A stretch of 64,000 nt of DNA from an uncultured Bacteriovoracaceae bacterium (lineage in GTDB: Bacteria > Bdellovibrionota > UBA2428). This document shows, in pieces, positions 11,741-46,997 of this stretch. The stretch lies in assembly GCA_964609695.1 (NCBI GenBank), contig CAZSSP010000007.1, forward strand, positions 8,926 to 72,925. The letters run 5' to 3'. The position numbers and the translations under genes were made by a program. Positions within the stretch are counted from its first letter, which is position 1. Each line of letters opens with the position of its first letter. The notes under the pieces are model-generated. The model worked only from the letters and a program-made list of their open reading frames with translations, had not been told where the DNA came from and searched no databases.

Positions 11741-11744
11741 GGGG

Positions 11745-12484: not shown

Positions 12485-13609
12485 CTATTTTTTTCGAATG
12501 GCTGCTTTTATGGAATATTGGTTGTTAAAGAAATCCATCGGGAAATCTACACCATGTCGACTAAAGTCATGCACAAATCTTGGCACGAAACCCAGAGAGT
12601 AAAAGCCTTTTGAAGGATCCCAAGCAAAAATTCCCTGTGTAAGAATCACATCTGACTCCATATTGCCGACCTCGATAATTTCCGTAACTCGACGACGACC
12701 ATCGGGTGTTCGCTGCACGTTGACGATCACATCAAGGGCACCCGACATGTGCTCACGAATAACTCTCATTGGAAAATCAGTGCCAGTCATGAGCACCATG
12801 GTTTCAAGTCGCCTTAAAGCTTCTCGACTGGAGTTAGCATGAAGAGTGGTCATACTTCCTTCATGACCCGTGTTCATAGCTTGAAGCATATCGAAGGCTT
12901 CGGAACCACGACACTCTCCCACTATGATGCGATCTGGTCGCATACGGAGAGCATTAATCACTAAGGTTCGAATAGAAACACCAGGATCGGTTGGAGTTTG
13001 CGGGCGCGCTTCTAAGCGAACTAAATTATCATTACGAATTTTTAATTCCGCCGCATCTTCAATACTCACAACTCGCTCGTGGGGTGGAATGAATCCACTC
13101 AAAACGTTGAGCAAAGTTGTTTTACCGGAGCCCGTTCCACCGCAAATCATAATGTTCAAACGCGCGTTCACACAGCAACTCAGAAAATAGGCAATTTTTT
13201 CATCAAACATACCGCTTGCGATCAGCTGCTCATGATTGATGGAATAGGGTGAAAATTTTCGAATAGTCACCGAGGGACCATCAACGGCTACGGGCGGAAT
13301 CACTATATTCACACGCGAGCCATCGGGAAGTCGCGCATCTAAACAAGGTGATTTTGGAGACAGTTCACGCCCCACATAGTCTGCAATACTCTTGAGCACT
13401 TGATAGAGCTCGGCTTCACTTTCAAAACTTAAAGGCGTTTTTTTAATGAGCCCCTTTTGTTCAATGAAAACTTTATTGGCCCCATTCACCATGATCTCAG
13501 TAACACTGGGGTCGTCAAGCAATGGAATTAATGGGCCAAAATGACTTTGCCACTGTGAATCTTTTACTTTACTGACGGCCCATTGAGACATGTTCATCTT
13601 TTCGGCCAT
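12485..13609 (-). CDS. cpaF: CpaF/TadA-family type II/IV secretion ATPase
   Basis: Walker A GGTGSGKTTLLN, VSIEDAAEL, RMRPDRIIVGECRGSEAFDMLQAMNTGHEGSMTTLHANS and RLPDGSRVNIVIPPVAVDGPSVTIRKF are all CpaF/TadA hallmarks. Confidence 0.9.
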   Translation of the reverse strand: MAEKMNMSQWAVSKVKDSQWQSHFGPLIPLLDDPSVTEIMVNGANKVFIEQKGLIKKTPLSFESEAELYQVLKSIADYVGRELSPKSPCLDARLPDGSRVNIVIPPVAVDGPSVTIRKFSPYSINHEQLIASGMFDEKIAYFLSCCVNARLNIMICGGTGSGKTTLLNVLSGFIPPHERVVSIEDAAELKIRNDNLVRLEARPQTPTDPGVSIRTLVINALRMRPDRIIVGECRGSEAFDMLQAMNTGHEGSMTTLHANSSREALRRLETMVLMTGTDFPMRVIREHMSGALDVIVNVQRTPDGRRRVTEIIEVGNMESDVILTQGIFAWDPSKGFYSLGFVPRFVHDFSRHGVDFPMDFFNNQYSIKAAIRKK

Positions 13610-13643: not shown

Positions 13644-13833
13644 TATTGTGCGCTAATAAACGGGCCTGCAATATTATAAATAAAAGTTATTAAGATCTTT
13701 AAATTCAATAACTAGAGCATCTTGGGGTGAGCGATGGGGCAAAGCCCCGAGCTTCAGGGGTCGCCCAAGCCGCTCTAGTTATTGAGTTTAAAGATCTAAA
13801 TAGATTTGCAGGCCCGTTTCTTAGCGCACAATA
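13644..13833. repeat. 190-bp nested-palindrome element, copy 1
   Basis: Outer arms 13644-13669 / 13808-13833, inner arms 13694-13718 / 13772-13796, central GGGGC-AAA-GCCCC tip. About 90% identical to 38517-38706 in the same orientation. Confidence 0.9.
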
Positions 13834-13837
13834 GAAT

Positions 13838-14263
13838 TTAGCGGGTGGAGGGGATTGGAAGCCAGGCGGGTTGAAGTTCTTTGAGCTCTTCTTTTTCTTC
13901 CTTGCGTTTACGTTTGCGAGGATAGTTTTTTGTAGGATCATCTGATGATCCACGAGTAAAAATTAAAAGCTCAGGTATAAACTTTCCATGATATGCTTCA
14001 GGATCAGATTCGGTGGCTTCTCTAAAATGAAGCATTATATCGACACCCATCCACACAAAAGAAACGTGTCGTCCGTGTTCGTCGAGCAAAGGGACATATA
14101 AATTATCTGAATAATAAGACCAATGTGAATTAGCTTTTTCAATATCATGAGTTTTAAGCTCTCTTAAAATTAAATCTCTAAACATTGAAAAACTAGGGAT
14201 GAGCGAATGCATTAACAAATGAGAAACAGCGGCCCATATATTGGCGGCAAAAGCTAAACACAT
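13838..14263 (-). CDS. hypothetical protein (possibly the C-terminal part of a gene interrupted by TGA)
   Basis: 141-aa ORF, hydrophobic N-terminus, basic/acidic tail KNYPRKRKRKEEKEELKEL. Same frame as the upstream ORF 14309..14884, with a single TGA and 15 sense codons between them. Confidence 0.4.
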   Translation of the reverse strand: MCLAFAANIWAAVSHLLMHSLIPSFSMFRDLILRELKTHDIEKANSHWSYYSDNLYVPLLDEHGRHVSFVWMGVDIMLHFREATESDPEAYHGKFIPELLIFTRGSSDDPTKNYPRKRKRKEEKEELKELQPAWLPIPSTR

Positions 14264-14308: not shown

Positions 14309-14884
14309 TCACCCCAAAAAAAGTCCCGTCTTCACTCCTGAACGAGTTGCAGAAATCATTGTAAGAGGTAGCTGAATTTTTCTAAAATAAGTCCAAGGAG
14401 AAATAGGATCATTGTTAAGCGCTTTTATAGCCTCTAAAATATTTTCATTCCCAACAATTCTAATTCCAAAACTAACATTCTTTCCTTCTTCGTCAGTACC
14501 GCCAGCACTATCGCCCAAGTTGAGCTCTAAGCCGCGAATTCGAGCCGCCAAAGCGGCCATGTGTTTTTTATTTTTTTCATGTGCCGAATGAGAATGCACC
14601 ACGTGAATACTTGGAATGATGGAATTATCAAAACCCAATCTACTTTGTCGAAAATTCCTGAGTTCAGTCAAAGCCTCTAAAGTAACCTTACGTCGTTCGG
14701 TTTCAATAGCTCCCGAACCTTCAACAGTTAAGGTGAGTGCGGCCTCGCAAATTGGATAACCAAACTGTCGCCATCGCTCAGGCTTGTATTGTTTTTCTGT
14801 TTCATCTGCAAAAACTCTTAGGGGATTGAAAAGAGACAAAGACAAAAGTGAGTATCGAAAGAAACTCGAAAAACGCATGGCCAA
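14309..14884 (-). CDS. hypothetical secreted protein (possibly the N-terminal part of a gene interrupted by TGA)
   Basis: Signal-like N-terminus MAMRFSSFFRYSLLSLSLFNPLRVFA. Ends ...GVKTGLFLG-TGA in the middle of a hydrophobic stretch. Confidence 0.5.
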   Translation of the reverse strand: MAMRFSSFFRYSLLSLSLFNPLRVFADETEKQYKPERWRQFGYPICEAALTLTVEGSGAIETERRKVTLEALTELRNFRQSRLGFDNSIIPSIHVVHSHSAHEKNKKHMAALAARIRGLELNLGDSAGGTDEEGKNVSFGIRIVGNENILEAIKALNNDPISPWTYFRKIQLPLTMISATRSGVKTGLFLG

Positions 14885-14902
14885 GCTATAGACTTAATTA
14901 TG

Positions 14903-16186
14903 CTAAGCGTCAATTAACTTCAGGGCTAAGGTTAAGGATTTTTGGGAGAAATAGAGCTTATTTTGCAATCGCTCAAAAGTTACAGGTGTTTGAACTTTAT
15001 GAGTCTCCACAATCACTGAAGATTGCTTTCTTCCAAAGGCTAATCCTACATGGCACAAACCCACAGGTTTCTCAGAAGTCCCCCCATTAGGTCCAGCTAT
15101 TCCCGTTGTTGATATCACTAAAATACTAGATTCAGGAAATTGAACTTTAAGTTTTTCATAACCCTTTAAAGCCATTTCTCTTGCACATTCTTCAGAAACA
15201 GCCCCATGAGATTTCAAAATCTCAGCGCTCACACCTAAACTCAATTTCATAGCATTATCGTAAGTGACCCACGAACCCATAAGAACTTCTGAAGCCCCGG
15301 AGATATCACTGATTCGACTAGAATTGAGTCCCCCTGTACAAGACTCAACAAAAGCTAAAATAATATTTTTGCTTTTTAATTTTTCAAAAAAAAGTTCTGG
15401 GAGCTCAGAGGGATTTTCTCCGTGAGTGTAGGTTGAGGGGGCTAAAATTTCAGTGATCTCTTTTTTTAAACTTTCAAAACTTTGAATTTTTTCTGGAGAA
15501 TCTAAATTTCCAAAAAGTGAAATGTAATTTTCAGGAAATTTTGTTCGAAACGCTAATTCAAAATCTTTAGGCAACTTTGAAATTAACTCTTTGAGATCCA
15601 TTTGAAGCGCGCTTTCGGCCGTAAATTGAGTCACCCAATGATAATGTCGATAGTCATCATTTCTAGGTATCTGAGACTGAATTTTTTCTTCATAAATTCC
15701 CTGAAGTTCTCTAGGAACACCTGGGAGAAAAAACCATTGGCGAGTGCGCTCTTTAAAGGTAAATGCGGGTGCTGTTCCAAAGTTATTGGCGATAACCTCA
15801 ACTCCTTGAGGCAAAATAGCTTGCTTTAACTGGGCTTCATTAACTGGGCGCTTTCTCTTTTCAAGCCAAGCTCTCACCATAATTTCGGCTTCAGCATTGA
15901 GCACGGGCTCAGAGTGCTGAAATTTGGCAAAGGCCTCAGACGTTAAATCATCGGACGTAGGCCCCAAACCACCACTGACAAAAATAATATCTGATCTTCG
16001 CGAAGCAATTTCAAAAGCCTCAATAATTCTGGAAATCTCATCATCAACTTTTTGGGCATGTCTTAAAACCAATCCTAAATTTTTTAATTTTTGAGCCAAC
16101 CAAACGGAATTGGTGTCAATCACTCTACCGTCGAGTATCTCGCGACCTATAGCAATGAACTCTACAATTTTTTGCGCTGAACTCAT
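14903..16186 (-). CDS. cinA: CinA-family protein (MoCF-binding domain plus nicotinamide-nucleotide amidase PncC domain)
   Basis: GGLGPTSDDLT in the N-terminal domain and ESCTGG in the C-terminal domain; 427 aa. Confidence 0.85.
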   Translation of the reverse strand: MSSAQKIVEFIAIGREILDGRVIDTNSVWLAQKLKNLGLVLRHAQKVDDEISRIIEAFEIASRRSDIIFVSGGLGPTSDDLTSEAFAKFQHSEPVLNAEAEIMVRAWLEKRKRPVNEAQLKQAILPQGVEVIANNFGTAPAFTFKERTRQWFFLPGVPRELQGIYEEKIQSQIPRNDDYRHYHWVTQFTAESALQMDLKELISKLPKDFELAFRTKFPENYISLFGNLDSPEKIQSFESLKKEITEILAPSTYTHGENPSELPELFFEKLKSKNIILAFVESCTGGLNSSRISDISGASEVLMGSWVTYDNAMKLSLGVSAEILKSHGAVSEECAREMALKGYEKLKVQFPESSILVISTTGIAGPNGGTSEKPVGLCHVGLAFGRKQSSVIVETHKVQTPVTFERLQNKLYFSQKSLTLALKLIDA

Positions 16187-16764
16187 AAACGTGAATCTCC
16201 CGACTGAAGATGGGCTTCCAACAAAGCTAATGCACCCGCCACTAAACCATGATCAACTTTTTTATTAAGCAACATTTGAAAACGATCTTTAAAGGGATGC
16301 CATTGAACATCTAAAACTTCACTACCATCACCCAGGACAACTGAAGGGTCTAATTCGCATCCAAAAGCTAAAAAGGCATGAACTCGATTTCTGAAAAGTG
16401 CGGGATTAGATGAAAAGTTCCCTAAGTAAAGCCAGCGCCCCGCTCGAGCTCCAGTTTCCTCTAGCAACTCTCTTTTAGCAGCCAAGAGTGGGTCGACGTC
16501 CTCTTCTTCAAGCGCACCCCCCGGAATTTCAAGCGTGGTGCACTCTGGCCCAACCCTGAATTGCTCTACCCAAAGCAAGCGAGCTTCTGGGCGCCTTAAT
16601 GAATCGGTATCAACAGCAATAACCTGCACCCAATCTCTTGTTTCTAAAACCACAAAAGGGTGTTCTATTTGGGCCACGTCATGGCTATGCGGCTCTCGAA
16701 ATATTTTGAAATGACGAGTTTGATAGAGAAGCTGTCGACCTAACTTTCTCCACATCAAATTCAT
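16183..16764 (-). CDS. NUDIX hydrolase
   Basis: NUDIX box GGALEEEDVDPLLAAKRELLEETG. 4-nt overlap with the cinA start. Confidence 0.85.
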   Translation of the reverse strand: MNLMWRKLGRQLLYQTRHFKIFREPHSHDVAQIEHPFVVLETRDWVQVIAVDTDSLRRPEARLLWVEQFRVGPECTTLEIPGGALEEEDVDPLLAAKRELLEETGARAGRWLYLGNFSSNPALFRNRVHAFLAFGCELDPSVVLGDGSEVLDVQWHPFKDRFQMLLNKKVDHGLVAGALALLEAHLQSGDSRL

Positions 16765-16813
16765 AAGTAAAAAACAATCTAATCGAATTGCGCAAAGGAG
16801 AAAAGACTTTCAA

Positions 16814-17938
16814 TCACCACTCGAATGATGCACGAACATAGTAACGGCGATCCACACCAATACCTGGCCCGCGCCCCAAATTGACCGCTTCAGTCACAAA
16901 AGCAATGTAACCTGGACCAATATGGCCATAAGCTCCGCCACCTAGGTTTCCCTTATAAAAGTGACCCGCCAAAGCACCATGAAGCCAACGTGTGACTCGC
17001 ATGTAAAATTCCATTCCAATGCCAAGATGCTCAATTTTTTTATCGGTTTTTACTAAATAATCACGATAGTCCACACTAATTGTAGGACGCATTCTGCCAA
17101 TTTTATGAAGCGACACTGCGGCTCCAGCATTTACTCTTTTCTGAGTTGGTGGAACTGTTCCTGATAAACTATTTTTCTGAAGTCGATTATCAAAATCATT
17201 TTCAAGAACGTTTTGATATACAGCGCCCAATGAAGGGACGAAACCAAAACGCCCCCAAGGACCCCCGTGCCACTGAGTTCCGATATCTAAATCACTTCCC
17301 CATCCCATTCCAAAAAAAGATCGCGGATTATCAAAACTTAACAATTGTTGGTTTTCCAGATAACTACTGTTGCTCATCCCTCGATCCATACCAGAGCGAA
17401 TATGCACAGGCCTAAAAGCGACACCGAACCTTAAATGATTATCAAAAAAGGGTTGTGCAAAACCCAAGGAAAAAGCTGTGTCTTGTGTCACGCGCGCGGC
17501 AGCCTTCAAAAATAAAAGAGATGGAGTTCGAATTCTAAATGAAGATCTTAATGCCAAAAAATTTAAAGCCATGGCAAAACGCTTTCCGTAATAACCAAAA
17601 CCTGGCACCTCAATACTAAAAGATGCAGCCGTGCCATCGAAAGAATAAAAATCCACAGGCCTTAAAGTGGATCCATTTTTTTTGAGATTTTTAATTTTTT
17701 TATAAAGCTTTGAAATACTTGGAGACACTCCGGCTTGAATCAAATCGGGAAGTCTCCATTTGGACTCCTCCTGAAGAGCTAGACCCGCTGGATTGGTATA
17801 CAAAGATTCCCAATCATCAATGTAAGCCGTAACAGCTCGACCCATGGCTATAGATCGAGGGGTTGGAAACAAATCATAATATTCACGCGAAAAGGCCGAA
17901 GTTGCCAATAAAAAAAAGAATAGCCACCCTCTACGCAT
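16814..17938 (-). CDS. outer-membrane beta-barrel protein (hypothetical)
   Basis: Signal peptide, YTNPAGLAL motif near the N-terminus, alternating beta-strand pattern, C-terminal ...ASFEW aromatic terminus. Confidence 0.55.
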   Translation of the reverse strand: MRRGWLFFFLLATSAFSREYYDLFPTPRSIAMGRAVTAYIDDWESLYTNPAGLALQEESKWRLPDLIQAGVSPSISKLYKKIKNLKKNGSTLRPVDFYSFDGTAASFSIEVPGFGYYGKRFAMALNFLALRSSFRIRTPSLLFLKAAARVTQDTAFSLGFAQPFFDNHLRFGVAFRPVHIRSGMDRGMSNSSYLENQQLLSFDNPRSFFGMGWGSDLDIGTQWHGGPWGRFGFVPSLGAVYQNVLENDFDNRLQKNSLSGTVPPTQKRVNAGAAVSLHKIGRMRPTISVDYRDYLVKTDKKIEHLGIGMEFYMRVTRWLHGALAGHFYKGNLGGGAYGHIGPGYIAFVTEAVNLGRGPGIGVDRRYYVRASFEW

Positions 17939-18039
17939 AGTTTATATCAAAGCTCTAACTTAAAGATAACGCGATCATGAAAGGAACGCAGCCTTCGATG
18001 GCTTTTTAAGACGAGAAAGATTCCTCTATGACACAGGGT

Positions 18040-18660
18040 TTAACGGGCTTTAGAGTTCGCCAAAGTCCGTTCTTCAAGAAATCTATCCAATTTCTTATTG
18101 AGTTCGTCTTTGCTCCCATTATTTTTTAATTCAAATTTTGCTTCACTCAACATGACGTTTTGATCTTGCAAAGAAATCATCATTTGAACTTCTTCTTTTC
18201 CCATGGAATCACGCTTAACGACTCTTGGAATAATTTTCTTCTCATCAGAAGTGATTACAATCAATCCATTGAGGTTTTTATGAAATTTTGATTCCACCAA
18301 ACGAGAGCCTTCAACAAAGGCAAACTTGGCATTCATTTCACGTTGTTTACGAGCCCATTTTTCGATGTAATCCAAAATGAGAGGATGCAAAATTTCTTCC
18401 AATTTTTTTCGATCATCAGGATTATTCATCATCTTCATTCTCAAAGCCCTGCGATCGAGATTGCCCAAATTATCTAAAACTGAAGAACCGAAAGTTTTAT
18501 AAATGAGTTGAAAACCTAACTTCCCTTGTTCTGTGTTTTTATCAACAACTAACCTAGACACCTGATCAGCATCCACGCAGGGATAGCCTTTCGAAGAGAG
18601 ATAAGAAATAGCCGTTGATTTACCCGATCCAATGATTCCTGTAATGCCCCAAAGTTCCAT
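18040..18660 (-). CDS. coaE: dephospho-CoA kinase
   Basis: GITGIIGSGKST P-loop at the extreme N-terminus; size and layout typical of CoaE. Confidence 0.85.
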   Translation of the reverse strand: MELWGITGIIGSGKSTAISYLSSKGYPCVDADQVSRLVVDKNTEQGKLGFQLIYKTFGSSVLDNLGNLDRRALRMKMMNNPDDRKKLEEILHPLILDYIEKWARKQREMNAKFAFVEGSRLVESKFHKNLNGLIVITSDEKKIIPRVVKRDSMGKEEVQMMISLQDQNVMLSEAKFELKNNGSKDELNKKLDRFLEERTLANSKAR

Positions 18661-18767
18661 CAGAACTCAGGTATCATAAATTTTCAGGCATCTTGCAAAC
18701 AACATAATAAATATTTCTAGAACGACTTCTAATTGTGGACCATTAGAAGATAAGTTAAATTTTAAAT

Positions 18768-37091: not shown

Positions 37092-38426
37092 TTAGAATTT
37101 GGACTGAAACTCAAGAAGTGCCGCATAATCGGCATTGAGAACGGCTATGTCTTCATGAAACAAATCAACATCAGCCAAGACGTTAATTAAGTTTTTAGTG
37201 ATTTCCACTTCCTCTCCCACTTTAAAATGCCAGCTAGAATCGCGATAAGATTTTAAAGAACGCACAAATGCCATATCTTCAGCACTTAGGATTCTACCCC
37301 CCTTTTTGGACACCAACGACACCTGAAAGGCGAGTTTATTTTTGAGCCAAGGCTTTTGAATTTCTTCGTGAAATCTTTGAGGATCGGCGTAACTCAACAA
37401 GCTTAAACGAGCCTCATCTAAGCCCGTCACTTCTTTTATAAGAGCGGGAAGCAAAGCACCCGCCATTCGAGGATTAGGCTCAACCAAAACTGGATCGGGG
37501 TGTGTCCAGTCTGCAACCTTAATCTCCAAATGCGCCGGTCCGTATCGGAAACCCAAGGCGTCGAGCACTTTTTTCCCATAGGCTTCAAGCGCCTCTCGCT
37601 CGGGCGCAAATTGAGATAAAAGCCGTGTATTTTGCTTCACAAAACTACCATTAGCTAAGCGGAGATTTTCGTATTCCATTATGTAAGCCAAATGATGTTT
37701 TCCAGCACTGCTTATAAACTCAACGATATATTCCGTACCCTCAAGAAACTCTTGCACCACAACTTCGCGATTGGGCAAAAGGAGGCTATTGAAAGGTTTA
37801 TTTCTTATGGCCCAAAAAGCTTCCTCTAGAGCTTGCATATTATCCACGGCCGCCACATTTTCACTTCCAGCTCCATGCGTGGGCTTAACAACAACTGGCC
37901 ATTCGGGATGAATATTCTTTTTCCAATCGAGAACATCACTCCACTCGATAGATCTCATTTGCTTAGCAGAGCGAATTCCCTCGTGAGATTTTAAAACCAT
38001 ATTCGAAAGAAATTTATCTTTTCGAGCTTCACTCAATTCAAAATCATTTCGTCTTGATAAGTTTAAGCGTTCCGACAAATAGTCCGCCATCACCACACCG
38101 GTATCAGTTCCCGGTACTATAAAATCAGGTGCCAATTCCTTAATTTGAGGCAGCAATTCATCCCAAGATTGCGCTTGATTGAAGATCTCTCTCGATCCCT
38201 CAAAATCTTGAGCTTGATAAGAGGCCGTAAAGACTGGTGGTACCTCACTCTTAGAATGCAATGCTATGATTTCATAACCTAATTCTTTAGCAGCAGCGGC
38301 ATACAAAGATCCCGAGGAATAGGGATCGACAACGATGACCCTTCGAAGATTTGTAATAAAGTCCTGACACGACCATAGTGGTCCAGAAAAGCTTAAGGAT
38401 AAAGCTACAACCAAGGCTAAAATCAT
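37092..38426 (-). CDS. ATP-grasp domain protein with N-terminal hydrophobic anchor
   Basis: VVKPTHGAGSENV and EFLEGTEYIVEF are ATP-grasp features. ATG at 38426 gives MILALVVALSLSFSGPLWSC followed by NLRRV. The listed TTG at 38465 is an alternative start. Confidence 0.7.
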   Translation of the reverse strand: MILALVVALSLSFSGPLWSCQDFITNLRRVIVVDPYSSGSLYAAAAKELGYEIIALHSKSEVPPVFTASYQAQDFEGSREIFNQAQSWDELLPQIKELAPDFIVPGTDTGVVMADYLSERLNLSRRNDFELSEARKDKFLSNMVLKSHEGIRSAKQMRSIEWSDVLDWKKNIHPEWPVVVKPTHGAGSENVAAVDNMQALEEAFWAIRNKPFNSLLLPNREVVVQEFLEGTEYIVEFISSAGKHHLAYIMEYENLRLANGSFVKQNTRLLSQFAPEREALEAYGKKVLDALGFRYGPAHLEIKVADWTHPDPVLVEPNPRMAGALLPALIKEVTGLDEARLSLLSYADPQRFHEEIQKPWLKNKLAFQVSLVSKKGGRILSAEDMAFVRSLKSYRDSSWHFKVGEEVEITKNLINVLADVDLFHEDIAVLNADYAALLEFQSKF

Positions 38427-38516
38427 CGAGGGCTCTTGGTTAGCATGAGCACAAAAATCATTCAAAACTCGAAACCTTACAAAGTCTTACACACCAAAAC
38501 TTAAAGTATGAAATTC

Positions 38517-38706
38517 TATTGTGCGCTAAGAAACGGGCCTGGAATATTAAAGCTAAAATTTATTAATATCTTTAAATTCAAAGACTAGAGCATCTTGGGG
38601 TGAGCGATGAGGCAACGCCTCGAGCTTCAGGGGTCGCCCAAGCCGCTCTAGTCTTTGAATTTAAAGATATAGATAGATTTCCAGGCCCGTTTCTTAGCGC
38701 ACAATA
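38517..38706. repeat. 190-bp nested-palindrome element, copy 2
   Basis: Same length and orientation as 13644-13833. Outer arms 38517-38542 / 38681-38706 pair perfectly, inner arms 38566-38591 / 38645-38670 pair perfectly, tip GAGGC-AAC-GCCTC. Confidence 0.9.
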
Positions 38707-38725
38707 GATTCTTTGAGCGGGGGGT

Positions 38726-39841
38726 TTAGCGGAAAATTAGATTAAATTCGCAAGAATTATCAGCAGTTCTGAGTTCTTTATGCGCTTTTTTTGAAGCTCG
38801 AGTGGCCTGCCAAAGACTATAGAATCCAGCAGCCCCCATCACACCAAAAGCCCACTCCGCGTGCGGATAATTGATCATTCTCAGCACCGTTAGAATTCCC
38901 GTTGAAATCATAGAAGCGCCCAGCAAACCAAAAGTCGATTTTAATAAAATACTAGCCCGATCCTCTCCCAACAGATGCCTATTTTCTGCACGAGTTGTGA
39001 AAGAAAGATCCCATGAACCCTGCGCAAAAGTGGCCATAGCTGCCGTTGATAGTACATTCAAAGCCGCTGGCCCAAAGTCTTGAGAATGCCCCATAAAAGT
39101 CCAACCTGTTTTTAAAACAGCCATAAAAAGGACTTCAAAAGCATACCAGCGACCAAACTGCTCCACCCAATCACAAATCGACTTCAACTGTTTTTCTTGA
39201 TCATCTTCGAGTTTCAACCCAAAAGTCGCTAAACTTCGAGTCAAAGCAGATCCCAAGCCACCGCGAGTGGTCATCCAACCGTAAAGTGTTTTGGCAAAAA
39301 ATTGAACATTGCCCGACAACAAACCCACCCAAGCTCCCATCGCCAAACTTATTGGCCAAGGAGTCGATCCATCCGATATCCTTAAACTCATAAATGCTAC
39401 ACTGGTCTGAAAGCTTCCTCTGACAAGAGCAAAGGTCCAGCGATAATTTTTCAACATGGACTTTTTTAGCTTGGCATAAAACTTTTGAAGATCCTTTTTA
39501 GGTCGAGGAACAAATTTAATAGAAAGCGTCGCCTCCCTCTCCAAAGAAGCCATCATTCTAGATAACGGAGATTGCGAATCCTCAAGCAGAGTTTTGAAAT
39601 TTTCATCAATCTCTATTTGAAGCTTCACCGTTTTATTGAGTTTTTTTTGTGAATGAATTTTGTGAATGAGTTCTGATTCAATTTGTGCCCAATCATCGTC
39701 TGTAGCTGTAGCCAATCCATCGATGAGAATTTCCTGTTTATGATGTTGAAGCTTTAACTGAACTGACTCAAGACGAGCCTCAACATTGATACAAATAAAA
39801 AGGAATAATAAGAATAAAGTCCTCAAAAACCCCAAATTCAC
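38726..39841 (-). CDS. hypothetical polytopic membrane protein
   Basis: Signal/anchor MNLGFLRTLFLLFLFICINVEA, a soluble helical region of about 130 aa, then several hydrophobic helices. No family recognised. Confidence 0.5.
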   Translation of the reverse strand: MNLGFLRTLFLLFLFICINVEARLESVQLKLQHHKQEILIDGLATATDDDWAQIESELIHKIHSQKKLNKTVKLQIEIDENFKTLLEDSQSPLSRMMASLEREATLSIKFVPRPKKDLQKFYAKLKKSMLKNYRWTFALVRGSFQTSVAFMSLRISDGSTPWPISLAMGAWVGLLSGNVQFFAKTLYGWMTTRGGLGSALTRSLATFGLKLEDDQEKQLKSICDWVEQFGRWYAFEVLFMAVLKTGWTFMGHSQDFGPAALNVLSTAAMATFAQGSWDLSFTTRAENRHLLGEDRASILLKSTFGLLGASMISTGILTVLRMINYPHAEWAFGVMGAAGFYSLWQATRASKKAHKELRTADNSCEFNLIFR

Positions 39842-39967
39842 CGGGAAGTAGTTTTAGTAACCCTTAAGTAGTTCAGCAAGTGTGTAAGATTTTTTAATAA
39901 AGGGCTTTATTATAAGTCTAAGCTCCTCTAAATCTAATAGGACAGTGGCGGAAGGAGTTTCACATCC

Positions 39968-40963
39968 ATGAAACGACATTTATTACTTCTTAGTTTCTTC
40001 TTATTAATGTCTTGTCAGAAAAAAGTTGGAGTCGAGAAAAAAACCATCTGGATTTACACAAGTCTTTACAAAGAAGTTCTTCCAAATTTCGATCCTTACT
40101 TTAGAAAACTTTTTCCTGATTTCAATATTCAGTGGTACCAAGCAGGATCCGAAGACATCTCAGCCAAAATCCAAGCCGAACTCAAGGGTGCCAAAACACA
40201 AGCATCAATTCTACTCACATCTGATGTCTTTTTTTATTTAGAAATGTCAGAAAAAGGAAAATTATTAAGCCTCGAGGGAGAAGCTCTTAAAAAACTAGAT
40301 CCACTCTTAGTGAATCCCGAGAAAAATATTGCTGTCGTTCGATATCCAGTTATGGTGATGGCTTTCAATCCAAAATTCGTAAAAGAAAAAGAAGCCCCAC
40401 TCAGTGTTGCTGGGATGCTGGATCCAAAATTTAAAGGCAAAATCACTATGCCCTCACCTCTTCAATCTGGAACGGCTTTAACCACACTTTTTTTTCTAGA
40501 AAGAAAATTCGGAAAAAGTCTCAATACAAAACTTAAAAATAACGACGTCCTTGCAGCCGGCGGAAACGGTGCCACTTTAGGTAGAATTCTCAGTGGAGAA
40601 AAGCCCCTAGGTCTTCTTCTCATGGAAAACGTTCTTCAGTCTCACGAAAAAGGACAAGAAGACATCGTCTATCAAATTCCACAAGAAGGAGCGATGCCCA
40701 TTCCCTCACCTATTGCAGTCTTTAAAGATAGCGACCACCCCAATGAGGCTAAAGCTTTGGCCGAATGGTTCATGGGAGAAGAAGCGCAAAACATCATTCG
40801 TAAAGCTTGGCTTTATTCACCTCTTCCTCAAATTGCAGCCCCCAATGGAGCGCCCGAATATTCAAAACTTAAAAAGATGGATTGGACTTGGGCTCAGCTG
40901 AAGGAATGGAAAGAGCAACGAGAAGATCTTAAAAATCGTTTTCAAAAAACTGTTCTAAGATAA
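39968..40963 (+). CDS. ABC transporter substrate-binding lipoprotein (Fe3+/thiamine-type family 1)
   Basis: Lipobox LLMSC. Size and position upstream of the fused two-domain permease and ATPase are typical of FbpA/AfuA-like binding proteins. Confidence 0.7.
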   Translation: MKRHLLLLSFFLLMSCQKKVGVEKKTIWIYTSLYKEVLPNFDPYFRKLFPDFNIQWYQAGSEDISAKIQAELKGAKTQASILLTSDVFFYLEMSEKGKLLSLEGEALKKLDPLLVNPEKNIAVVRYPVMVMAFNPKFVKEKEAPLSVAGMLDPKFKGKITMPSPLQSGTALTTLFFLERKFGKSLNTKLKNNDVLAAGGNGATLGRILSGEKPLGLLLMENVLQSHEKGQEDIVYQIPQEGAMPIPSPIAVFKDSDHPNEAKALAEWFMGEEAQNIIRKAWLYSPLPQIAAPNGAPEYSKLKKMDWTWAQLKEWKEQREDLKNRFQKTVLR

Positions 40964-40969
40964 TTTTAC

Positions 40970-42487
40970 ATGAACGAATTTTGGCTCAATGTCATTCAAA
41001 ACACTCTGCTCATGATTTTAGGAGTGTGCGCCTTATGCAGTGTCATTGCCCTCCCCCTCTCTTTTGCACTTGAAAGATATAAAATTCCTTATGGAGAAGG
41101 AATTTTCAGAGCTCTCACCATACCCTATGTTTTTCCTAGTTATATACTCGCTATTTCCTGGATCACTCTCGCCAACCCCACGGTAGGATGGCTTAATAAA
41201 ATTCTTCCCTTCACTCTCAACATCTATTCAATTTGGGGAATTATATTTGTGGAGTCCTCCGTTCTTATGTCGTTGCTATTTTTAAATCTCCGTTCAGCTC
41301 TTCAGAAAATCGACCCCACACTCGAAGAAGCCGCTAGACTCTCCGGAGCTTCGTCTTGGCAAAGTTTTTGGCACGTGACATTTCCCCTGATTAAAAAAAA
41401 CTTTGCAGGCGGACTCCTCTCTATTGCTTTAGCTTCTTTAGCTAGCTTTGGTGTTCCAGCCATGCTCGGACAAGCAGGGCGTATTTTTGTGATGACAACT
41501 TCAATTTACTCACTCATCAAAACAGGAAGTGAAAGTAGTTTTAATGAAGCCTTATTGATTTCAAGCCTCACACTCATTCCCACTCTTCTTTTAGTCATCT
41601 TAGTCAGGCGCTGGGACTCCTCAAAATCAAAAAATCTTGCCTCTGCCAAAGCCTCACGCAATGAAAAAAAAGAAGCCAGTTCTTTTACTTTAGTCACAAC
41701 TCTCAGCATTTCTTTTCTTGTCATTTTTCTAATGGTGATTTTACCGGTAGTAACTCTCATCCTCTCTAGTTTTCAAAAAAGTCTTTCAGAGATTTCTATA
41801 AACAATTTTTCTCTACGTGCTTGGGACTATGTTCTCACTACTCTTCCTCAATTTTGGAACAGCTTTCAAAACTCTATTATCTGCGCGCTTCTCAGCACCC
41901 TCATATTAGTTTTCTTGGCTTTTTCCTTAGGCTTATTGAATAAGCATTTTGAAAAAAAACAAAATCTGCTGGGCCGAAGAATCATTACAATCTTTGAAAC
42001 TCTTCTCTCATTTTTCTATTCCATTCCTGGAACAGTTCTAGCCCTAGGACTCACAGTTATCGTAAGTTTTTTAGGCTTAGATTATTTACAAGGAAGCTTA
42101 AACTTAATCATTTTGAGCTACTGCTTTAAATACAGCAATCTGGCTCTTAAAAACTTGTCTCCCAATTTTAACTTTATTCACCCCTCGTGGATTGAAGCTG
42201 CTGAAATATCCGGAGCAGGTCCCTGGAGTCGCATTAGATGGATTTATATTCCCTTACTTAAAACTGCACTTCTGGCAACTGCAACTTTAGTCTTCATGCC
42301 CACCCTAAGTGAGCTCAGCATGACTCTGCTTTTATCAGGCCCCATGAGCTCGACATTAGGCGTCCTGCTTTTCGAACTCCAAGAATATGCTGATCGATCT
42401 TCAGCCGCTGTTGTTGGCACTTTAATTTTAATCTTCGTTCTAGTTTTACAAAGATTTTCACGGAGAAACTATGAAATTGCTCGTTAA
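40970..42487 (+). CDS. iron-type ABC transporter permease (duplicated MetI-like domains)
   Basis: 505 aa with about 12 TM segments. Two EAA-like loops (LEEAARLSGAS.. and IEAAEISGAG..), as in FbpB/ThiP-type permeases. Confidence 0.8.
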   Translation: MNEFWLNVIQNTLLMILGVCALCSVIALPLSFALERYKIPYGEGIFRALTIPYVFPSYILAISWITLANPTVGWLNKILPFTLNIYSIWGIIFVESSVLMSLLFLNLRSALQKIDPTLEEAARLSGASSWQSFWHVTFPLIKKNFAGGLLSIALASLASFGVPAMLGQAGRIFVMTTSIYSLIKTGSESSFNEALLISSLTLIPTLLLVILVRRWDSSKSKNLASAKASRNEKKEASSFTLVTTLSISFLVIFLMVILPVVTLILSSFQKSLSEISINNFSLRAWDYVLTTLPQFWNSFQNSIICALLSTLILVFLAFSLGLLNKHFEKKQNLLGRRIITIFETLLSFFYSIPGTVLALGLTVIVSFLGLDYLQGSLNLIILSYCFKYSNLALKNLSPNFNFIHPSWIEAAEISGAGPWSRIRWIYIPLLKTALLATATLVFMPTLSELSMTLLLSGPMSSTLGVLLFELQEYADRSSAAVVGTLILIFVLVLQRFSRRNYEIAR

Positions 42488-43190
42488 TAATATTTCAAAA
42501 TACTTTGATCACAACAAAGCCGTCATCGAAGACATTTCGCTTGTTGTGCAAGAACGAGAATGCGTTGGACTCTTGGGACCCTCGGGCTGCGGCAAAAGCA
42601 CATTGCTCAGAATCATTGCGGGATTAGAAAGTGCCAGCAATGGCGAAATCCACTTTGATCATGAATGCTGGGTTGAAAAGGATTTTTCACTTTCACCTGA
42701 AAAAAGACTTCTCGGTATGCTCTTTCAAAATTATGCTCTTTGGCCCCACATGAGCGTATTACAAAACGTTTCTTTCCCATTAAAAATGCAAAAAAAATCT
42801 AAAACCGAACAGAATAAGCAAGCCTTAATCGCACTCGAAAAAGTACACTTGAGCGATATGGCAGAAAGAATGCCTGGCACCCTTTCTGGCGGACAACAGC
42901 AACGCGTAGCTTTAGCGCGTCTCTTAGCCCAAAATCCACGTTTAATGCTTTTAGATGAACCCCTCTGCAATTTAGACGCCAGCTTAAAAGGTGCTATGAG
43001 AAAAGAAATTCGAAGCATTCAACAAGAATCTAACCTCAGCGCCATATTAGTGACCCATGATTGGGCTGATGTAGAAATTCTTTGCGACAGAGTTTATGTT
43101 ATTCATCAAGGAAAAATTCTTCAGGAAGGCACGCCCAAAGACATAAAAAGTCGGCCGGCTAACCGATTTGTTGAAGATCTTCTCCTTTAA
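42471..43190 (+). CDS. ABC transporter ATP-binding protein
   Basis: Walker A GPSGCGKSTLLR, signature LSGGQQQRVALARLL, Walker B LMLLDEPL. Confidence 0.88.
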   Translation: MKLLVNNISKYFDHNKAVIEDISLVVQERECVGLLGPSGCGKSTLLRIIAGLESASNGEIHFDHECWVEKDFSLSPEKRLLGMLFQNYALWPHMSVLQNVSFPLKMQKKSKTEQNKQALIALEKVHLSDMAERMPGTLSGGQQQRVALARLLAQNPRLMLLDEPLCNLDASLKGAMRKEIRSIQQESNLSAILVTHDWADVEILCDRVYVIHQGKILQEGTPKDIKSRPANRFVEDLLL

Positions 43191-43197
43191 GGAATTT

Positions 43198-44046
43198 ATG
43201 AAAAAAATTAATTGGAGTTTTATTTTATTAGCCACAATGATTTCATGTTCTTCAAAGCCCAAAAGCTTAGCCGAAGAAAAAACTGAAACTTCTAATGCTT
43301 TAGACAAAGAAAAAACATACATTCTCGAATCCATCCACGAACGTGACATGACTCAAAACCCCGCTCTTAATCTTGACGTGATAACCTCAGAGGACGGAAA
43401 AGTGGTTTTTGCTGGAGGAGCTTTTTCTGTGGGGGGTCTTTTAAGAAGTGCTCTATTCAAATCAGAAGACGGCGGCATCACATGGAAGGAAATCGAAGCC
43501 TACGTCTATGGAAGCAGCGTGACCGACATCGATATTGTTAAAAATCAAATCAATGTTTTTTTAACTTATGGTATTGAGGGGGCCTTTTTTAATGGAACAC
43601 TTCGCTCTTTAGACGGAGGACTCCAATGGAATCGACTCGAAGGACTCAGAGACGAAAAGAATCAAGAGAAAATTAGAGCCCACATTGGATGCTGCTTTGA
43701 ACAAGCTCTCAAAGGACATTTTAAGAATGAGAACGAAGGCTATGTTCTGATTAGTGACTATAGATACCTTCTCTTAAAAACCTTAGACGGTGGTCAGAAT
43801 TATACCGTTGAGAAGCTCTTGGCTAAAGTTCAAAAAAATCCACCCAAACTCAAAGAGCTCAGCAAAAACCCATCCCCTTACGAATATAGAATTCGTCAAA
43901 GTAAAAAATTGAATTCTGATAAAGTCCCTCTAGCCTTCGAAATTGAAAGTCGAATTGCCGGAAAAACTTCTTGGAAAAAAATATCTGAATTACCCACCTT
44001 TTGGACTCTTGATAAAGTCACACTAAAAGCAACTCCAATGCCCTAA
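43198..44046 (+). CDS. BNR/Asp-box repeat lipoprotein (hypothetical)
   Basis: ATG at 43198 preceded by AAGGA. Signal MKKINWSFILLATMISC. Three Asp-box-like repeats: SEDGGITW, SLDGGLQW, TLDGGQNY. Confidence 0.6.
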   Translation: MKKINWSFILLATMISCSSKPKSLAEEKTETSNALDKEKTYILESIHERDMTQNPALNLDVITSEDGKVVFAGGAFSVGGLLRSALFKSEDGGITWKEIEAYVYGSSVTDIDIVKNQINVFLTYGIEGAFFNGTLRSLDGGLQWNRLEGLRDEKNQEKIRAHIGCCFEQALKGHFKNENEGYVLISDYRYLLLKTLDGGQNYTVEKLLAKVQKNPPKLKELSKNPSPYEYRIRQSKKLNSDKVPLAFEIESRIAGKTSWKKISELPTFWTLDKVTLKATPMP

Positions 44047-44121
44047 AATTCAGACTCGTCATTTCATTTTTCTAGGCTCATCTTTTTTGACTGAACGCTA
44101 TTAAAATGATTTTCTCTGCGA

Positions 44122-45216
44122 GTGGACACTTCCCTAAAAAAAAGCCCCCTTTGGAATGAACACCAAAAACTTGGGGCACGCTTTGTACCCTTCAGTGGTT
44201 ACGATATGCCTGTTCAATACCAAGGAGTTTTAGTTGAACACCAAGCCGTTAGAGAAAAGGCTGGTCTTTTCGACGTCTCGCACATGGGAGTGTCTATTTT
44301 CAGTGGACCCAATATCTTAGAAAAGATCAACTCCATAATCACTCGCGACGTTTCTCAATTAGCCGTCGGAAAAGGTGCTTATACACTCTTGTGTCGTGAC
44401 AATGGATATTGTGTAGACGATCTTATTCTTTATCGAATTGAAAATGAGAAAATCCTCTTTGTATTTAACGCCTCCAATAAAGAAAAAGATTTCGAATATA
44501 TTCAATCCAAACTCAAAGGAAATGATTTTAAAGCCACTGCACCCAGTGAAGATTGGGCGCTCATAGCTCTTCAAGGACCCGCTTCTGTTAAAATTTTGCA
44601 GGATTTGGGACTTAAAAGCTGGCCCGAAGCCTTTTCGGTAATTGAGCATAGTATTTCTGGAATTTCTTGCACCCTGCTCTTTACTGGATATACCGGCGAA
44701 TTGGGTTGTGAAATTTGCGTAAAATCTCAAGATGCAGCAAAACTTTGGAATGAACTTCTTAAGAGTGGAAAAAACGATGGTCTCATCGCCTGCGGTCTCG
44801 GCGCACGAGACACCCTAAGGCTCGAAATGGGCTATAGTCTTTACGGCCATGAAATTAGTGAAGAGATCAACCCCCTTGAAGCTGGACTTTCGTGGGCTGT
44901 AAATTTTTCCAAAGAAAACTTTATAGGCAAAGAAGCTCTCCTCACTTATAAGAACTCCCCCAAAAGAAAACTCATAGCTCTCAAAAACAATTCTAAGCAG
45001 GCACCCAGAGGAGAAATGCGAGTTTATGACGCCACTGGCCGAGACGTCGGCTTCATAACTTCTGGCTCATTAGCCCCTTCCTTGGGTCACGCCATCGGAT
45101 TAGCCCTAGTTTCGACCGATTCTAACGCTCCTTACTCGGTGGGCATAAGAGATAAAAAAATACCTTTTGATCTTACGAAAAGACCTTTTTATAAGAAATT
45201 AAACAAGGAGACTTAA
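44122..45216 (+). CDS. gcvT: glycine cleavage system aminomethyltransferase T
   Basis: FSGYDMPVQY, FDVSHMG and TGYTGELG motifs. GTG start. Confidence 0.9.
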   Translation: MDTSLKKSPLWNEHQKLGARFVPFSGYDMPVQYQGVLVEHQAVREKAGLFDVSHMGVSIFSGPNILEKINSIITRDVSQLAVGKGAYTLLCRDNGYCVDDLILYRIENEKILFVFNASNKEKDFEYIQSKLKGNDFKATAPSEDWALIALQGPASVKILQDLGLKSWPEAFSVIEHSISGISCTLLFTGYTGELGCEICVKSQDAAKLWNELLKSGKNDGLIACGLGARDTLRLEMGYSLYGHEISEEINPLEAGLSWAVNFSKENFIGKEALLTYKNSPKRKLIALKNNSKQAPRGEMRVYDATGRDVGFITSGSLAPSLGHAIGLALVSTDSNAPYSVGIRDKKIPFDLTKRPFYKKLNKET

Positions 45217-45219
45217 TCA

Positions 45220-45606
45220 ATGTCAGAGATCCCTTCCTCATTAAAATATACAAAAGATCACGAATGGGCTCAAAAACTTGAAGCCCCTAAAACATTAAGA
45301 ATTGGAATCACTGACTTTGCTCAAAATTCCCTAGGCGATGTCACCTACTTGGAACTTCCTGAAATTGGAAAAGCCTTTAAAAAAGGTGAAATCATTGGGA
45401 CCGTTGAAAGTGTTAAAGCCGTATCCGATATTTACGCTCCAGTGAGTGGAAAAATCACAGCCGCTAACAGTTCACTTTGCGACGAGCCTTCATTGCTTAA
45501 CACGGATCCATTTGGAAAAGCTTGGTTAGTTGAAATCGAAATGGAAAACGAAGCGGATTGGAATGCTCTTTTAAGTCCCGAAGCTTATTCACAACACGCA
45601 CACTAA
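45220..45606 (+). CDS. gcvH: glycine cleavage system H protein
   Basis: Lipoyl-lysine motif ESVKAVSDIYAPVSG; 128 aa. Confidence 0.92.
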   Translation: MSEIPSSLKYTKDHEWAQKLEAPKTLRIGITDFAQNSLGDVTYLELPEIGKAFKKGEIIGTVESVKAVSDIYAPVSGKITAANSSLCDEPSLLNTDPFGKAWLVEIEMENEADWNALLSPEAYSQHAH

Positions 45607-45626
45607 AAAAAAAACAGGAGACGCGA

Positions 45627-46997
45627 ATGCGCTATCTGCCACTGACCCCATCTGAAGAAAAAAAAATACTTAATGACTGTGGAGTGAAAAACTTTTCAGA
45701 TTTGCTAGACAGCGTTCCCCCTGATCTACGCTTAAAAGGAAACCTTAAAACAGGCGCCGCTCAGAGCGAAGAAGAGCTCGTAGAAACTTTTGAAAACTAC
45801 GCCTCAAACATCAAAGCTGCAAAAATGATTTCTTTCTTAGGACAAGGCGCCTACGATCACACTTGGCCCAAAGTGATCGATCAACTCATTAACCGCGGAG
45901 AATTTCTCACAGCCTACACTCCATACCAACCTGAAATTTCGCAGGGAACACTTCAAAGTATTTTTGAATTTCAATCTTTAATTGCTGAAATCACAGGAAT
46001 GGAAATCTCTAACGCCTCTCTTTACGACGGATCGACGGCTCTTCTTGAAGCTATTCTAATGAGCGCTCGCCTTCAAAAGAAAGAAAAGGGAGTGATCCTT
46101 GTTAGCGAAGGAACTTATCCATCAACCTTAGAACTTCTGAAAACTTATCTTGAACCTCTGAATATACAAATTCATATTTGGAAAGCCGACTCAAAAACTT
46201 ATCTTTCCACAGAAAACACCCTTGATTATAGCGACACACAAAATATTCTAGGAGTCGCACTTCAGTCTCCTAACAAATGGGGATTGATTGAGGATTGGGC
46301 TGAAGCTGTCAAAAGCGCTCAGAAATTAAAAACTAAATCCATTGCCTCAACTTTCCAGATACATTCACTTACAGAATTTGCTTCTCCAGGTGAGGCTGGA
46401 ATTGACATTGTCTCCGGAGAAGGCCAAGCCCTTGGCATTCCTGTTGGCTTCGGAGGCCCTTACTTAGGCCTCTTGTGTTGTAAAAAATCCGATGTTCGGC
46501 AACTTCCGGGCAGACTTGTTGGACTCACAGAGGATTCCAAAGGACAAAGAGCTTTTTGCATCACTCTATCGACTCGCGAACAACATATTCGAAGAGAAAA
46601 AGCCACTAGCAACATTTGCTCCAATCAAAACCTCATGGCCCTAAGAGCGGCCATGTACACAACACTCATGGGACCACAAGGACTCTTAGAACTTTCACAA
46701 ACCCTAAGAGCCAAACTCGAATATTTTCAAAAAACGCTCGAGTCTAAAATAAAAAAGGGCAAAATTATTCAGGGTAGCGCCCTCAACGAGATTAGCCTCA
46801 TCATTGGACCTTTAACTGAAGATCAAAAAAAGAATTTTGAAAAGAATTCATTCAATGAAGGCCTTATCTGTGGAGTCTTTAATAAAGAGCCCATAGCCCT
46901 CAATTCAAACAATCAAATTTTAACAATTGCGATCACTGAAAGACACTCAAAAAATAACTTAGACAAATTGGCAGATTTTTTAAGTCGCCATTTTTAA
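45627..46997 (+). CDS. gcvPA: glycine dehydrogenase (decarboxylating) subunit 1
   Basis: ATG at 45627 preceded by CAGGAG. MRYLPLTPSEEKKIL start and YTPYQPEISQGTLQ motif. Confidence 0.9.
   Translation: MRYLPLTPSEEKKILNDCGVKNFSDLLDSVPPDLRLKGNLKTGAAQSEEELVETFENYASNIKAAKMISFLGQGAYDHTWPKVIDQLINRGEFLTAYTPYQPEISQGTLQSIFEFQSLIAEITGMEISNASLYDGSTALLEAILMSARLQKKEKGVILVSEGTYPSTLELLKTYLEPLNIQIHIWKADSKTYLSTENTLDYSDTQNILGVALQSPNKWGLIEDWAEAVKSAQKLKTKSIASTFQIHSLTEFASPGEAGIDIVSGEGQALGIPVGFGGPYLGLLCCKKSDVRQLPGRLVGLTEDSKGQRAFCITLSTREQHIRREKATSNICSNQNLMALRAAMYTTLMGPQGLLELSQTLRAKLEYFQKTLESKIKKGKIIQGSALNEISLIIGPLTEDQKKNFEKNSFNEGLICGVFNKEPIALNSNNQILTIAITERHSKNNLDKLADFLSRHF

Follow-up and report, generated by a model that had tools for sequence, protein, structure and literature searches.

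INTRODUCTION

The closest described counterparts of the element reported here, a 190-bp nested palindrome present in two copies in a 64,000-nucleotide stretch of DNA from an uncultured Bacteriovoracaceae bacterium (contig CAZSSP010000007.1, positions 8,926 to 72,925; the whole stretch is called the window), are the Correia, ERIC/IRU, REP/BIME and bcr1 repeats of other bacteria. The likeness is architectural, and by sequence the element is set apart from these families indirectly, through searches of plasmids, phages and Rfam and a scan with a terminal 23-mer, rather than by comparison with family consensuses. In the reading that we favor, to which we assign a probability of roughly 0.6, the window copies at 13644–13833 (copy 1) and 38517–38706 (copy 2) belong to a lineage-restricted, non-coding family of nested palindromes resembling miniature inverted-repeat transposable elements (MITEs), whose fold-back is kept by selection on the element together with recombination between its arms.

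Correia elements of Neisseria (CREE/NEMIS) are intergenic repeats of ~100–160 bp that carry 26-bp terminal inverted repeats around a conserved core, are flanked by TA and occur in many copies; they form long hairpins in read-through transcripts, which RNase III can bind or cleave, and their presence or absence varies between close strains. The present element is similar in its terminal inverted repeats and conserved core, its dispersed copies and its presence/absence polymorphism, but its 190 bp are nearly all nested palindrome, the one empty site lacks a TA duplication and no promoter consensus is found. Moreover, its core is GC-rich where Correia elements have an IHF-type AT-rich site, and in-place inversions are prominent. 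The ERIC/IRU repeats are imperfect palindromes of ~127 bp in transcribed intergenic regions, TA-flanked, inserted in either orientation and known in shorter and longer variants. The imperfect palindrome, the use of both orientations and the size variants are shared by our element; however, ERIC is kept across a whole bacterial family, whereas the 190-bp family is confined to one genus-level lineage.

REP/BIME sequences are extragenic palindromes at the 3′ ends of genes, for which mRNA stabilization, control of DNA topology and termination have been proposed as roles. Our palindrome is likewise concentrated at gene 3′ ends, but identity with REP/BIME was rejected because REP sequences are 20–40 bp long, have a GTAG/CGTC head and are RAYT-linked, whereas the element is 190 bp, starts with TATTG and has no RAYT-like gene beside any copy. 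The bcr1 repeats of the Bacillus cereus group are MITE-like sequences of ~155 bp, in which compensatory changes keep a long double-stranded structure and stability is lost in some copies (PMC3184786). Compensatory changes that maintain a double-stranded structure in such repeats have thus already been reported, and the element resembles bcr1 in that compensatory base-pair changes maintain its long paired structure. Unlike bcr1, which has 5-bp direct repeats and is transcribed, it shows no target duplication, is known here from DNA alone and belongs to another phylum.

A further precedent concerns mutation. In quasi-palindrome mutagenesis of E. coli, template switching lets a mutation on one arm reappear on its partner, perfects or extends imperfect palindromes, and inverts the sequence between the arms. 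This is a mutational process and not an element family, and it leaves the invariant termini, the apex and the G:U bias described below unexplained.

RESULTS

Two window copies that differ mainly by compensated changes

Copies 1 and 2, each 190 nt long and in the same orientation, were aligned with 0 gaps and differ by exactly 18 substitutions. Five base pairs are changed on both sides from copy 1 to copy 2 (in copy coordinates, 26:165 from C:G to G:C, 51:153 from G:C to T:A, 66:138 from T:A to A:T, 67:137 from A:T to G:C, and 94:104 from G:C to A:T). A T/C mismatch at 14:177 and a T-G wobble at 61:143 in copy 1 are Watson-Crick pairs in copy 2, and the remaining six differences are all unpaired, lying in a bulge, an internal loop and the tip loop. 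Both copies fold as a single long hairpin with z of about −16 (copy 2: RNA fold −116.8 kcal/mol against −46.1 ± 4.2 for dinucleotide shuffles, z = −16.7; DNA fold z = −15.6). The arms 38515–38544 and 38679–38708, 30 nt each, are 100% complementary, so the palindrome runs on weakly into the flanks, and the window has 4 occurrences of the terminal 23-mer where 0.00 are expected. Copy 2 lies 19 nt past the stop codon (38726–38728) of a 371-aa gene and 51 nt before the start (38465) of an ATP-grasp open reading frame (ORF).

The original prediction, made from the letters of the window, had described two gap-free, co-oriented 190-bp copies with about 18 substitutions, five compensatory swaps, a repaired mismatch and wobble, other differences clustered in loops, and a position of copy 2 between the stop at 38726 and the ATP-grasp gene. 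The alignment reproduces all of this: the five swaps are real, both repairs are seen, every leftover difference is unpaired, and the two distances were measured as 19 and 51 nt.

A family restricted to one lineage

An exact scan with the terminal 23-mer, covering one genome per species, returned 11 loci, all of them in the metagenome-assembled genome (MAG) ‘Proteobacteria bacterium Gw_Eff_bin_446’ (JAGNHS01); nine are full-length copies and two are solo ends. Locus L006 of this MAG is collinear with window positions 38442–45721 at 93% identity and L007/L033 with 10652–18719 at 90–91%, showing that both window copies have positional orthologues in the MAG, and the window's DNA is that of a sister species of JAGNHS01. 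Further copies and alleles were collected from JGI, NCBI and Logan assemblies, including contigs of the window's own species, which were found via flanking proteins. Contigs often terminate inside the element, as expected of a repeat.

Beyond these two species, the window's CpaF ATPase has its best named matches in Bdellovibrionota or Bdellovibrionales MAGs at ~60% identity, so that the organism probably belongs in or near Bdellovibrionota, and relatives at 86% and 71% CpaF identity have no copy at the syntenic position nor within 5–21 kb. Plasmid and phage BLAST gave no match to the element, the 21 loci from a 17-mer scan of JGI metagenomes were without exception chance matches of 17–19 nt, and three viral-contig scans gave nothing or chance matches. 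An Rfam scan of the whole window at gathering thresholds returned 0 matches, and a tRNA/tmRNA search found none. Membership in a known RNA family was dismissed as well, since an E-value scan of 38400–38850 gave only spurious plant and animal microRNA-precursor hairpins far below thresholds. Judged from these searches, the family is restricted to one genus-level lineage of uncultured Bdellovibrionota-like bacteria, and the sequences compared show it as having spread to many gene 3′ ends in the common ancestor of the two sister species.

Element plan and unequal constraint

The element consists of 28-nt terminal inverted repeats, a ~15-nt AT-rich bulge on one arm, a 25-bp inner stem and a 53-nt GC-rich apex. 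Its termini begin TATTGTGCGC, its first bases being TATTG, and its ends are TATTGTGCGCTAAGAAACGGGCC. The ‘+’ strand of the element is the strand by which all copies were oriented, as defined from the asymmetric core. The parts of copy 2, and copy 1, are as follows.

38517..38706, + strand: copy 2 of the 190-bp nested-palindrome repeat; its orthologue is L006:76-265 of the sister-species MAG, with 4/190 differences.
38517..38544, + strand: left terminal inverted repeat, 28 nt; first 25 nt near-invariant across all copies, paralogue diversity 1–2%.
38545..38559, + strand: asymmetric AT-rich bulge of ~15 nt on the ‘long’ arm; variable among paralogues, marks the orientation of the shell and lies in the opposite arm in L002.
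38567..38591, + strand: 5′ arm of the inner stem, pairing with 38645–38669; holds most covarying pairs, including the hypervariable 66:138 and 67:137.
38592..38644, + strand: GC-rich asymmetric apex (‘core’) with the tip hairpin GRGGC-AAN-GCCYC; conserved, sets the polarity of the element, paralogue diversity 9%.
38645..38669, + strand: 3′ arm of the inner stem, partner of 38567–38591.
38679..38706, + strand: right terminal inverted repeat, complement of 38517–38544; helix 1 cells 98% paired.
13644..13833, + strand: copy 1 of the repeat, between a cpaF-like ATPase gene and its upstream gene; other strains and species carry it inverted in place.

Among eight MAG paralogues, diversity was 1–2% in the termini, 9% in the apex, 16–17% in the inner stems and 29–41% in the bulge and adjacent positions. 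A hammerhead-like reading of the apex (GAUGAGGC...) was ruled out, because the A in question is a paired, covarying base of the tip stem (94:104) and no ribozyme turned up in Rfam. A conserved ORF was not noticed when the copies were inspected informally.

Orthologous copies of the window and the MAG differ at 4/190 and 8/190 positions, and the pair at the Dtd site at 5/190 (2–4%), whereas near both window copies the third codon positions of the two species differ by 17–20% and the adjoining spacer by ~15%. Since arm-to-arm conversion by itself does not slow substitution, some copies must be either under purifying selection or homogenized. On the other hand, divergence is ~11% at the protease and subtilase sites and other copies are deleted, so the constraint is real but not universal.

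Pairing is maintained, with a marginal bias toward one strand

Over 11 copies, 13/74 pairs showed two-sided changes (shuffles 6.0 ± 1.3) in 34 cells (shuffles 10.8 ± 2.6), which 0/500 shuffles reached, and slid controls gave 0–4 pairs. Over 15 copies, the figures were 17/74 pairs (shuffles 7.8 ± 1.7) and 51 cells (shuffles 13.5 ± 3.1), again with 0/500 shuffles reaching them and 3–6 pairs in slid controls; 97.5% of the cells are paired. The covarying pairs lie in the terminal stem (11:180, 14:177 and 26:165), in the inner stem (ten) and in the apex (87:110, 88:109 and 94:104), with helix 3, which runs from the inner stem into the base of the apex, having 10/32 two-sided pairs. About half of the swaps are of transversion type (U:A to A:U, G:C to C:G). 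When cells are read on the core-defined strand, G:U outnumbers A:C by 34 to 4 cells and by 13 to 4 pairs, and this strand gives the more stable fold in 9/11 copies. The G:U excess and the fold stability are suggestive of one particular strand folding while single-stranded.

A wider alignment of copies had been proposed in the original prediction as the check on its statement that the structure is under selection, and in that alignment the covariation exceeds all 500 shuffles and the slid controls. The statement thus stands insofar as pairing is actively maintained (17 pairs, 51 cells, G:U above A:C), whereas a decaying or converting repeat is not thereby excluded, as the following observations show.

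Arms recombine, and whole elements flip in place

At the cpaF site, which holds copy 1, orientation A is found in the window, in L037 and L038 and in the half-element L036, whereas orientation B is found in the MAG (L033), in the JGI contigs L034 and L035 and in the Logan contig L039. A and B alleles differ at 91 positions when compared directly, but only at 7–8 once un-flipped. The orientation is tied to a single-nucleotide polymorphism (SNP) in the flank (AAAAGC or AAAGGC), and strains of opposite orientation are 0–1 nt apart over the 1125-nt cpaF gene and ~1% apart overall. When the interior flips, a SNP of the terminal arm does not move with it but keeps to the flank, indicating that the crossover lies inside the terminal repeat. 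At this same site, the MAG has G:C at pair 14:177, the window has G·A, and L034 and L035 have T:A; in this allele series one can see directly how a change on one arm comes to be matched by the partner arm.

The Dtd-site copy (L057, L060 and L061) is flipped relative to L004 of the MAG and shows five differences, including G:C to C:G at 66:138. In a remnant at the L010 site, the arm that survives beside the gene is the ‘wrong’ one, which implies a third flip, and thus in-place inversion is seen at 3/6 comparable orthologous loci. The L002 copy has a shell that is inverted with respect to its core, which implies that recombination also takes place between the arms of the inner stem. Assembly artefact is an unlikely cause, given that each cpaF-site orientation recurs in at least three independent assemblies, that orientation is linked to the flank SNP and that three JGI samples share the same orientation at the Dtd site. 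Because the arms recombine, as the inversions and the 14:177 series show, part of the apparent compensation can be concerted evolution at the DNA level. Gene conversion of a single palindrome template, which the original prediction had named as a finding that would speak against it, is partly borne out.

Gain, loss and decay of copies

At the L002 locus the element is absent from the window's species (L053–L056), where there is a 9-nt overlap (...ACTCAAAATAGCTTAGGGGCGG...) between two convergent genes. In the MAG, 215 additional nt are present at this position, comprising a 23-nt C-rich extension that gives the left gene a new TAA, followed by the palindrome; by this comparison the extension, TAA included, arrived with the inserted DNA. 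The extension resembles the inverted right flank (p ~0.002–0.04), and at the Dtd site 12–18 nt of both flanks are inverted duplicates, themselves covarying. Duplication of a TA target, as for a MITE of the IS630/mariner type, was considered since nearly all copies are TA-flanked in a YTAR-like context, but as a demonstrated feature it was rejected because the empty-site junction lacks TA; in addition, two unrelated copies begin with G at position 1, which counts against it.

Other sites hold altered copies. At the TadA/cytochrome c site the window's species has a 57-bp hairpin, in which the terminal repeats are joined by AAATC, where the MAG has a full element. L036 is a half-element, and at L008 a solo end is left over between convergent genes. 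The protease-site orthologue L074, with 13 single-sided changes and a degenerating apex, is a decaying copy. By contrast, at the subtilase site L070:11312-11499 and L003:5922-6111 of the MAG differ at 21 positions, with five two-sided pairs, four of which keep a standard pair, 0 single-sided stem changes and 11 unpaired differences. The subtilase-site copy of the window's species falls in another subfamily than its positional orthologue and resembles L010 and L001, which suggests ectopic gene conversion or replacement between paralogues.

A 442-bp unit at L011:7045-7486 has the same left terminal repeat, a degenerate right repeat (CCAGGCACGTTTTATCGCGCACAATA) and a different interior, which contains a small hairpin and an 85-aa lipoprotein-like ORF with a lipobox-like signal (LLFSC). 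Such a unit could have arisen either as a longer relative of the element or through insertion of other DNA into an element. The two solo ends did not reveal an autonomous parent, L008 being a remnant and the L011 unit carrying only the small lipoprotein-like ORF. As a separate observation, on the 1.4-kb JGI contig L063 (947-1135) the left part of the Dtd-site copy is joined to the right arm and flank of another copy; the junction is either an assembly chimera over the repeat or a real rearrangement via recombination between copies.

Copies lie beside stop codons

Nine independent sites were compared. At 8/9 the element lies within 19 nt of a stop codon, seven of them at 3–19 nt and one, L002, with the stop of the right gene overlapping the last base of the element; at the ninth, L005, only the downstream gene is known and its start is 51 nt away. 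At four of the nine sites the element occupies the stop-proximal end of a spacer between tandem genes, three sites are between convergent genes and two have one known neighbour; none is known between divergent genes. Relative to the adjacent gene, the orientation of the core is mixed. A C-rich extension of ~20 nt is present at four independent sites, with the pattern TAA-N-CCSCCC-N10-|TATTG, and the stop codon of the upstream gene lies within it or directly beside it; such extensions were seen next to both window copies and in the flanks of L004, L002, L057 and L070:20326-20365. The extensions beside the window copies, and the host genes, are these.

38707..38728, − strand: C-rich extension, minus-strand TAA-ACCCCCCGCTCAAAGAATC; includes the stop (38726–38728) of the 371-aa gene upstream; other copies have homologous extensions beside them.
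38726..39841, − strand: host gene upstream of copy 2; encodes a 371-aa orphan that lacks any Pfam domain.
37092..38465, − strand: host gene downstream of copy 2; encodes an ATP-grasp protein.
13834..13858, − strand: C-rich motif beside copy 1, CCCCTCCACCCGC-TAA-ATTC; overlaps the coding end and stop (13838–13840) of the upstream gene.
12485..13609, − strand: downstream host gene of copy 1, a pilus ATPase of the CpaF/T2SSE family.

The genome is compact, with most spacers shorter than 100 nt, and yet the 190-bp inserts are retained. The flanking genes are ordinary housekeeping genes, and no transposase, recombinase or RAYT-like gene adjoins any copy. Inside the element neither a sigma-70 promoter consensus nor an intrinsic-terminator consensus was found on either strand. 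An intrinsic terminator was rejected on the flanks too, since T-run, hairpin and A-run follow one another in the wrong order and there is no U-tract after the hairpin.

Some further features of the neighbourhood were recorded. The 371-aa protein (38726–39841) has, among 5.8 billion clusters, no homologue beyond its own 90% cluster and is a lineage-specific orphan. The gene upstream of copy 1 is divided by an in-frame TGA (14309–14311, minus strand) into ORFs of 191 and 141 aa (LFLG*FAGL), where its orthologues in L033 and L034 have GGA and encode a single 346-aa protein; the TGA is a nonsense mutation, the sign of a pseudogene or a sequencing error. Around 18720–18750 the window differs from L034:3860-4887 by an indel of ~1 kb, although the L034 strain is ~99% identical elsewhere. 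A tyrosine recombinase gene with Phage_integrase domains was noted at L057:1-835, ~9.7 kb from the Dtd-site copy and with no evident link to the element.

DISCUSSION

A MITE-like palindrome family in flux

The element has several of the traits by which a MITE is recognized, namely a length of 190 bp, terminal inverted repeats, dispersed copies and a presence/absence polymorphism (L002, filled in the MAG and empty in L053–L056). Taken together, the sites show a family still in flux, one being empty or filled depending on the species and other copies being internally deleted, halved or decaying. Two forces would keep the arms complementary. Selection would act on the fold-back of the element's own core strand, such that lineages keeping the hairpin, the termini and the apex persist or propagate. 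Recombination or template switching between the arms would produce whole-element and core-only inversions, copy mutations across the arms and extend the palindrome into the flanks. Paralogues of ‘healthy’ lineages differ by compensated changes, whereas the dead copy gathers single changes.

Several observations weigh against this reading. The sole empty/filled pair has neither a TA nor a longer target duplication, AA being the most that could be duplicated, so that classical cut-and-paste or copy-in transposition is not demonstrated; this comparison concerns one site, whose copy is old and rearranged. Neither the 23-mer scan nor the flanking genes yielded a transposase or an autonomous element with these termini, although the MAG is fragmented and an insertion sequence could be missed. 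With no target duplication at the sole usable site and no cognate transposase, the family is MITE-like and not a proven MITE. Furthermore, three resident copies evolve 4–8 times slower than third codon positions. Residents as slow as these are not expected if selfish DNA simply decays neutrally, so the reading needs some host-level constraint or ectopic homogenization in addition. Nor does it account for how strongly the sequence of the GC-rich apex is conserved. Lastly, the G:U/A:C asymmetry amounts to ~15 against 4 events, or 13 against 4 without the two ancestral wobbles, and is only marginally significant.

The original prediction had regarded the element as a functional RNA or DNA hairpin and not as a decaying repeat. 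This does not hold in view of the dispersed copies, the lack of a fixed orientation, the absence at one site, the stubs and single arms, and the decay of L074.

A possible role of the hairpin for the host

One alternative holds that the element is primarily a host-beneficial, cis-acting RNA hairpin of 3′ untranslated or intercistronic regions, acting as a stabilizer, an RNase III site or a non-canonical terminator, that it is under purifying selection and that its mobile origin is secondary. The placement close to stop codons at 8/9 sites, with none known between divergent genes, is what such a role would produce, as are the strong covariation with G:U above A:C, the slow evolution of the three orthologous copies and the retention of 190-bp inserts in a compact genome; roles of this kind are reported for Correia and ERIC elements. 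However, copies face either way along the host transcript and have changed direction between strains and between species, yet the G:U asymmetry follows the polarity of the element. An RNA stem needs no invariant terminal or apex sequences; the interior proved dispensable at the TadA and L010 sites, the window's species lacks the element at the L002 site, and one copy is decaying. No U-tract, terminator consensus or Rfam match was found. Of the features expected of a structured RNA, covariation was seen, whereas a fixed strand or position, or a promoter or terminator of its own, was not. We therefore regard a primary role for the host as unlikely, albeit deserving serious consideration.

A secondary role is compatible with the MITE-like reading. 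When transcribed in the 3′ region of the upstream gene, the hairpin would form in either orientation, and by analogy with Correia, ERIC and REP sequences it could plausibly serve as a generic 3′ stem-loop, stabilizer or RNase III substrate in read-through transcripts. It is not a locus-specific riboregulator.

Possible concerted evolution without selection

A second alternative takes the hairpin to be functionless and explains its pairing by pure DNA-level concerted evolution, in which quasi-palindrome correction copies each mutation across the arms. The inversions with crossovers in both the terminal and the inner stems fit this, and so does the G:C, G·A, T:A allele series at one locus. Swaps of transversion type (G:C to C:G, T:A to A:T) between orthologues only 5–8 substitutions apart, and the inverted duplication of flanks at the L002 and Dtd sites, point in the same direction. 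But conversion does not lower the substitution rate, and yet the termini (1–2%) and core (9%) vary up to 20–40 times less than the bulge (29–41%), and resident copies are slower than third codon positions. Strand symmetry would be predicted, but G:U exceeds A:C; the asymmetric bulge, the internal loops and the apex persist rather than being erased; and L074 holds 13 uncorrected single-sided changes. Such correction probably contributes to the family, but as its whole explanation we hold it to be improbable.

Possible spread without a transposase, and possible switching

It is also conceivable, at a similarly low level of confidence, that the element spreads without a transposase. The core-strand fold-back would then be the unit of selection, and hairpin-primed or template-switch synthesis would land at gene 3′ ends, copy the flank in inverted form and bring its own TAA. 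The carried TAA would keep a stop codon for the interrupted gene, and frequent in-place inversion would be a by-product.

That the family is a set of invertons, whose terminal repeats are sites for a site-specific invertase and whose flipping alters expression of neighbours such as the cpaF pilus ATPase, is highly improbable: both orientations do occur at the cpaF and Dtd sites (the former in strains with identical cpaF), 3/6 loci are flipped between species and invariant 25-bp inverted repeats are common to all copies, as in multi-locus invertons, but orientation is stably linked to a flank SNP and 7 substitutions, and switching is thus not fast, crossovers occur at two or more depths (terminal stem and inner stem), no promoter consensus is present on either strand, no dedicated invertase or other recombinase gene adjoins any copy, and at one third of the sites the neighbouring genes converge, leaving a promoter switch with nothing to act on.

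Implications

With regard to method, compensatory substitutions in a long palindrome are insufficient to call a functional RNA: where arms flip and copy across, covariation tests of the kind used for RNA can be confounded by DNA-level concerted evolution. In practice, the element breaks short-read assemblies, and many contigs end within its copies. If true, spread independent of a transposase would represent such a mode of palindrome mobility in bacteria. For the biology of these organisms, a well-resolved small repeat family, with an empty site, mini-derivatives and orientation alleles, is added to a poorly known Bdellovibrionota-like lineage with very compact genomes, and the family could serve as a natural system for the rates of palindrome inversion, shrinkage and conversion, and for the recruitment of hairpins as 3′-end modules.

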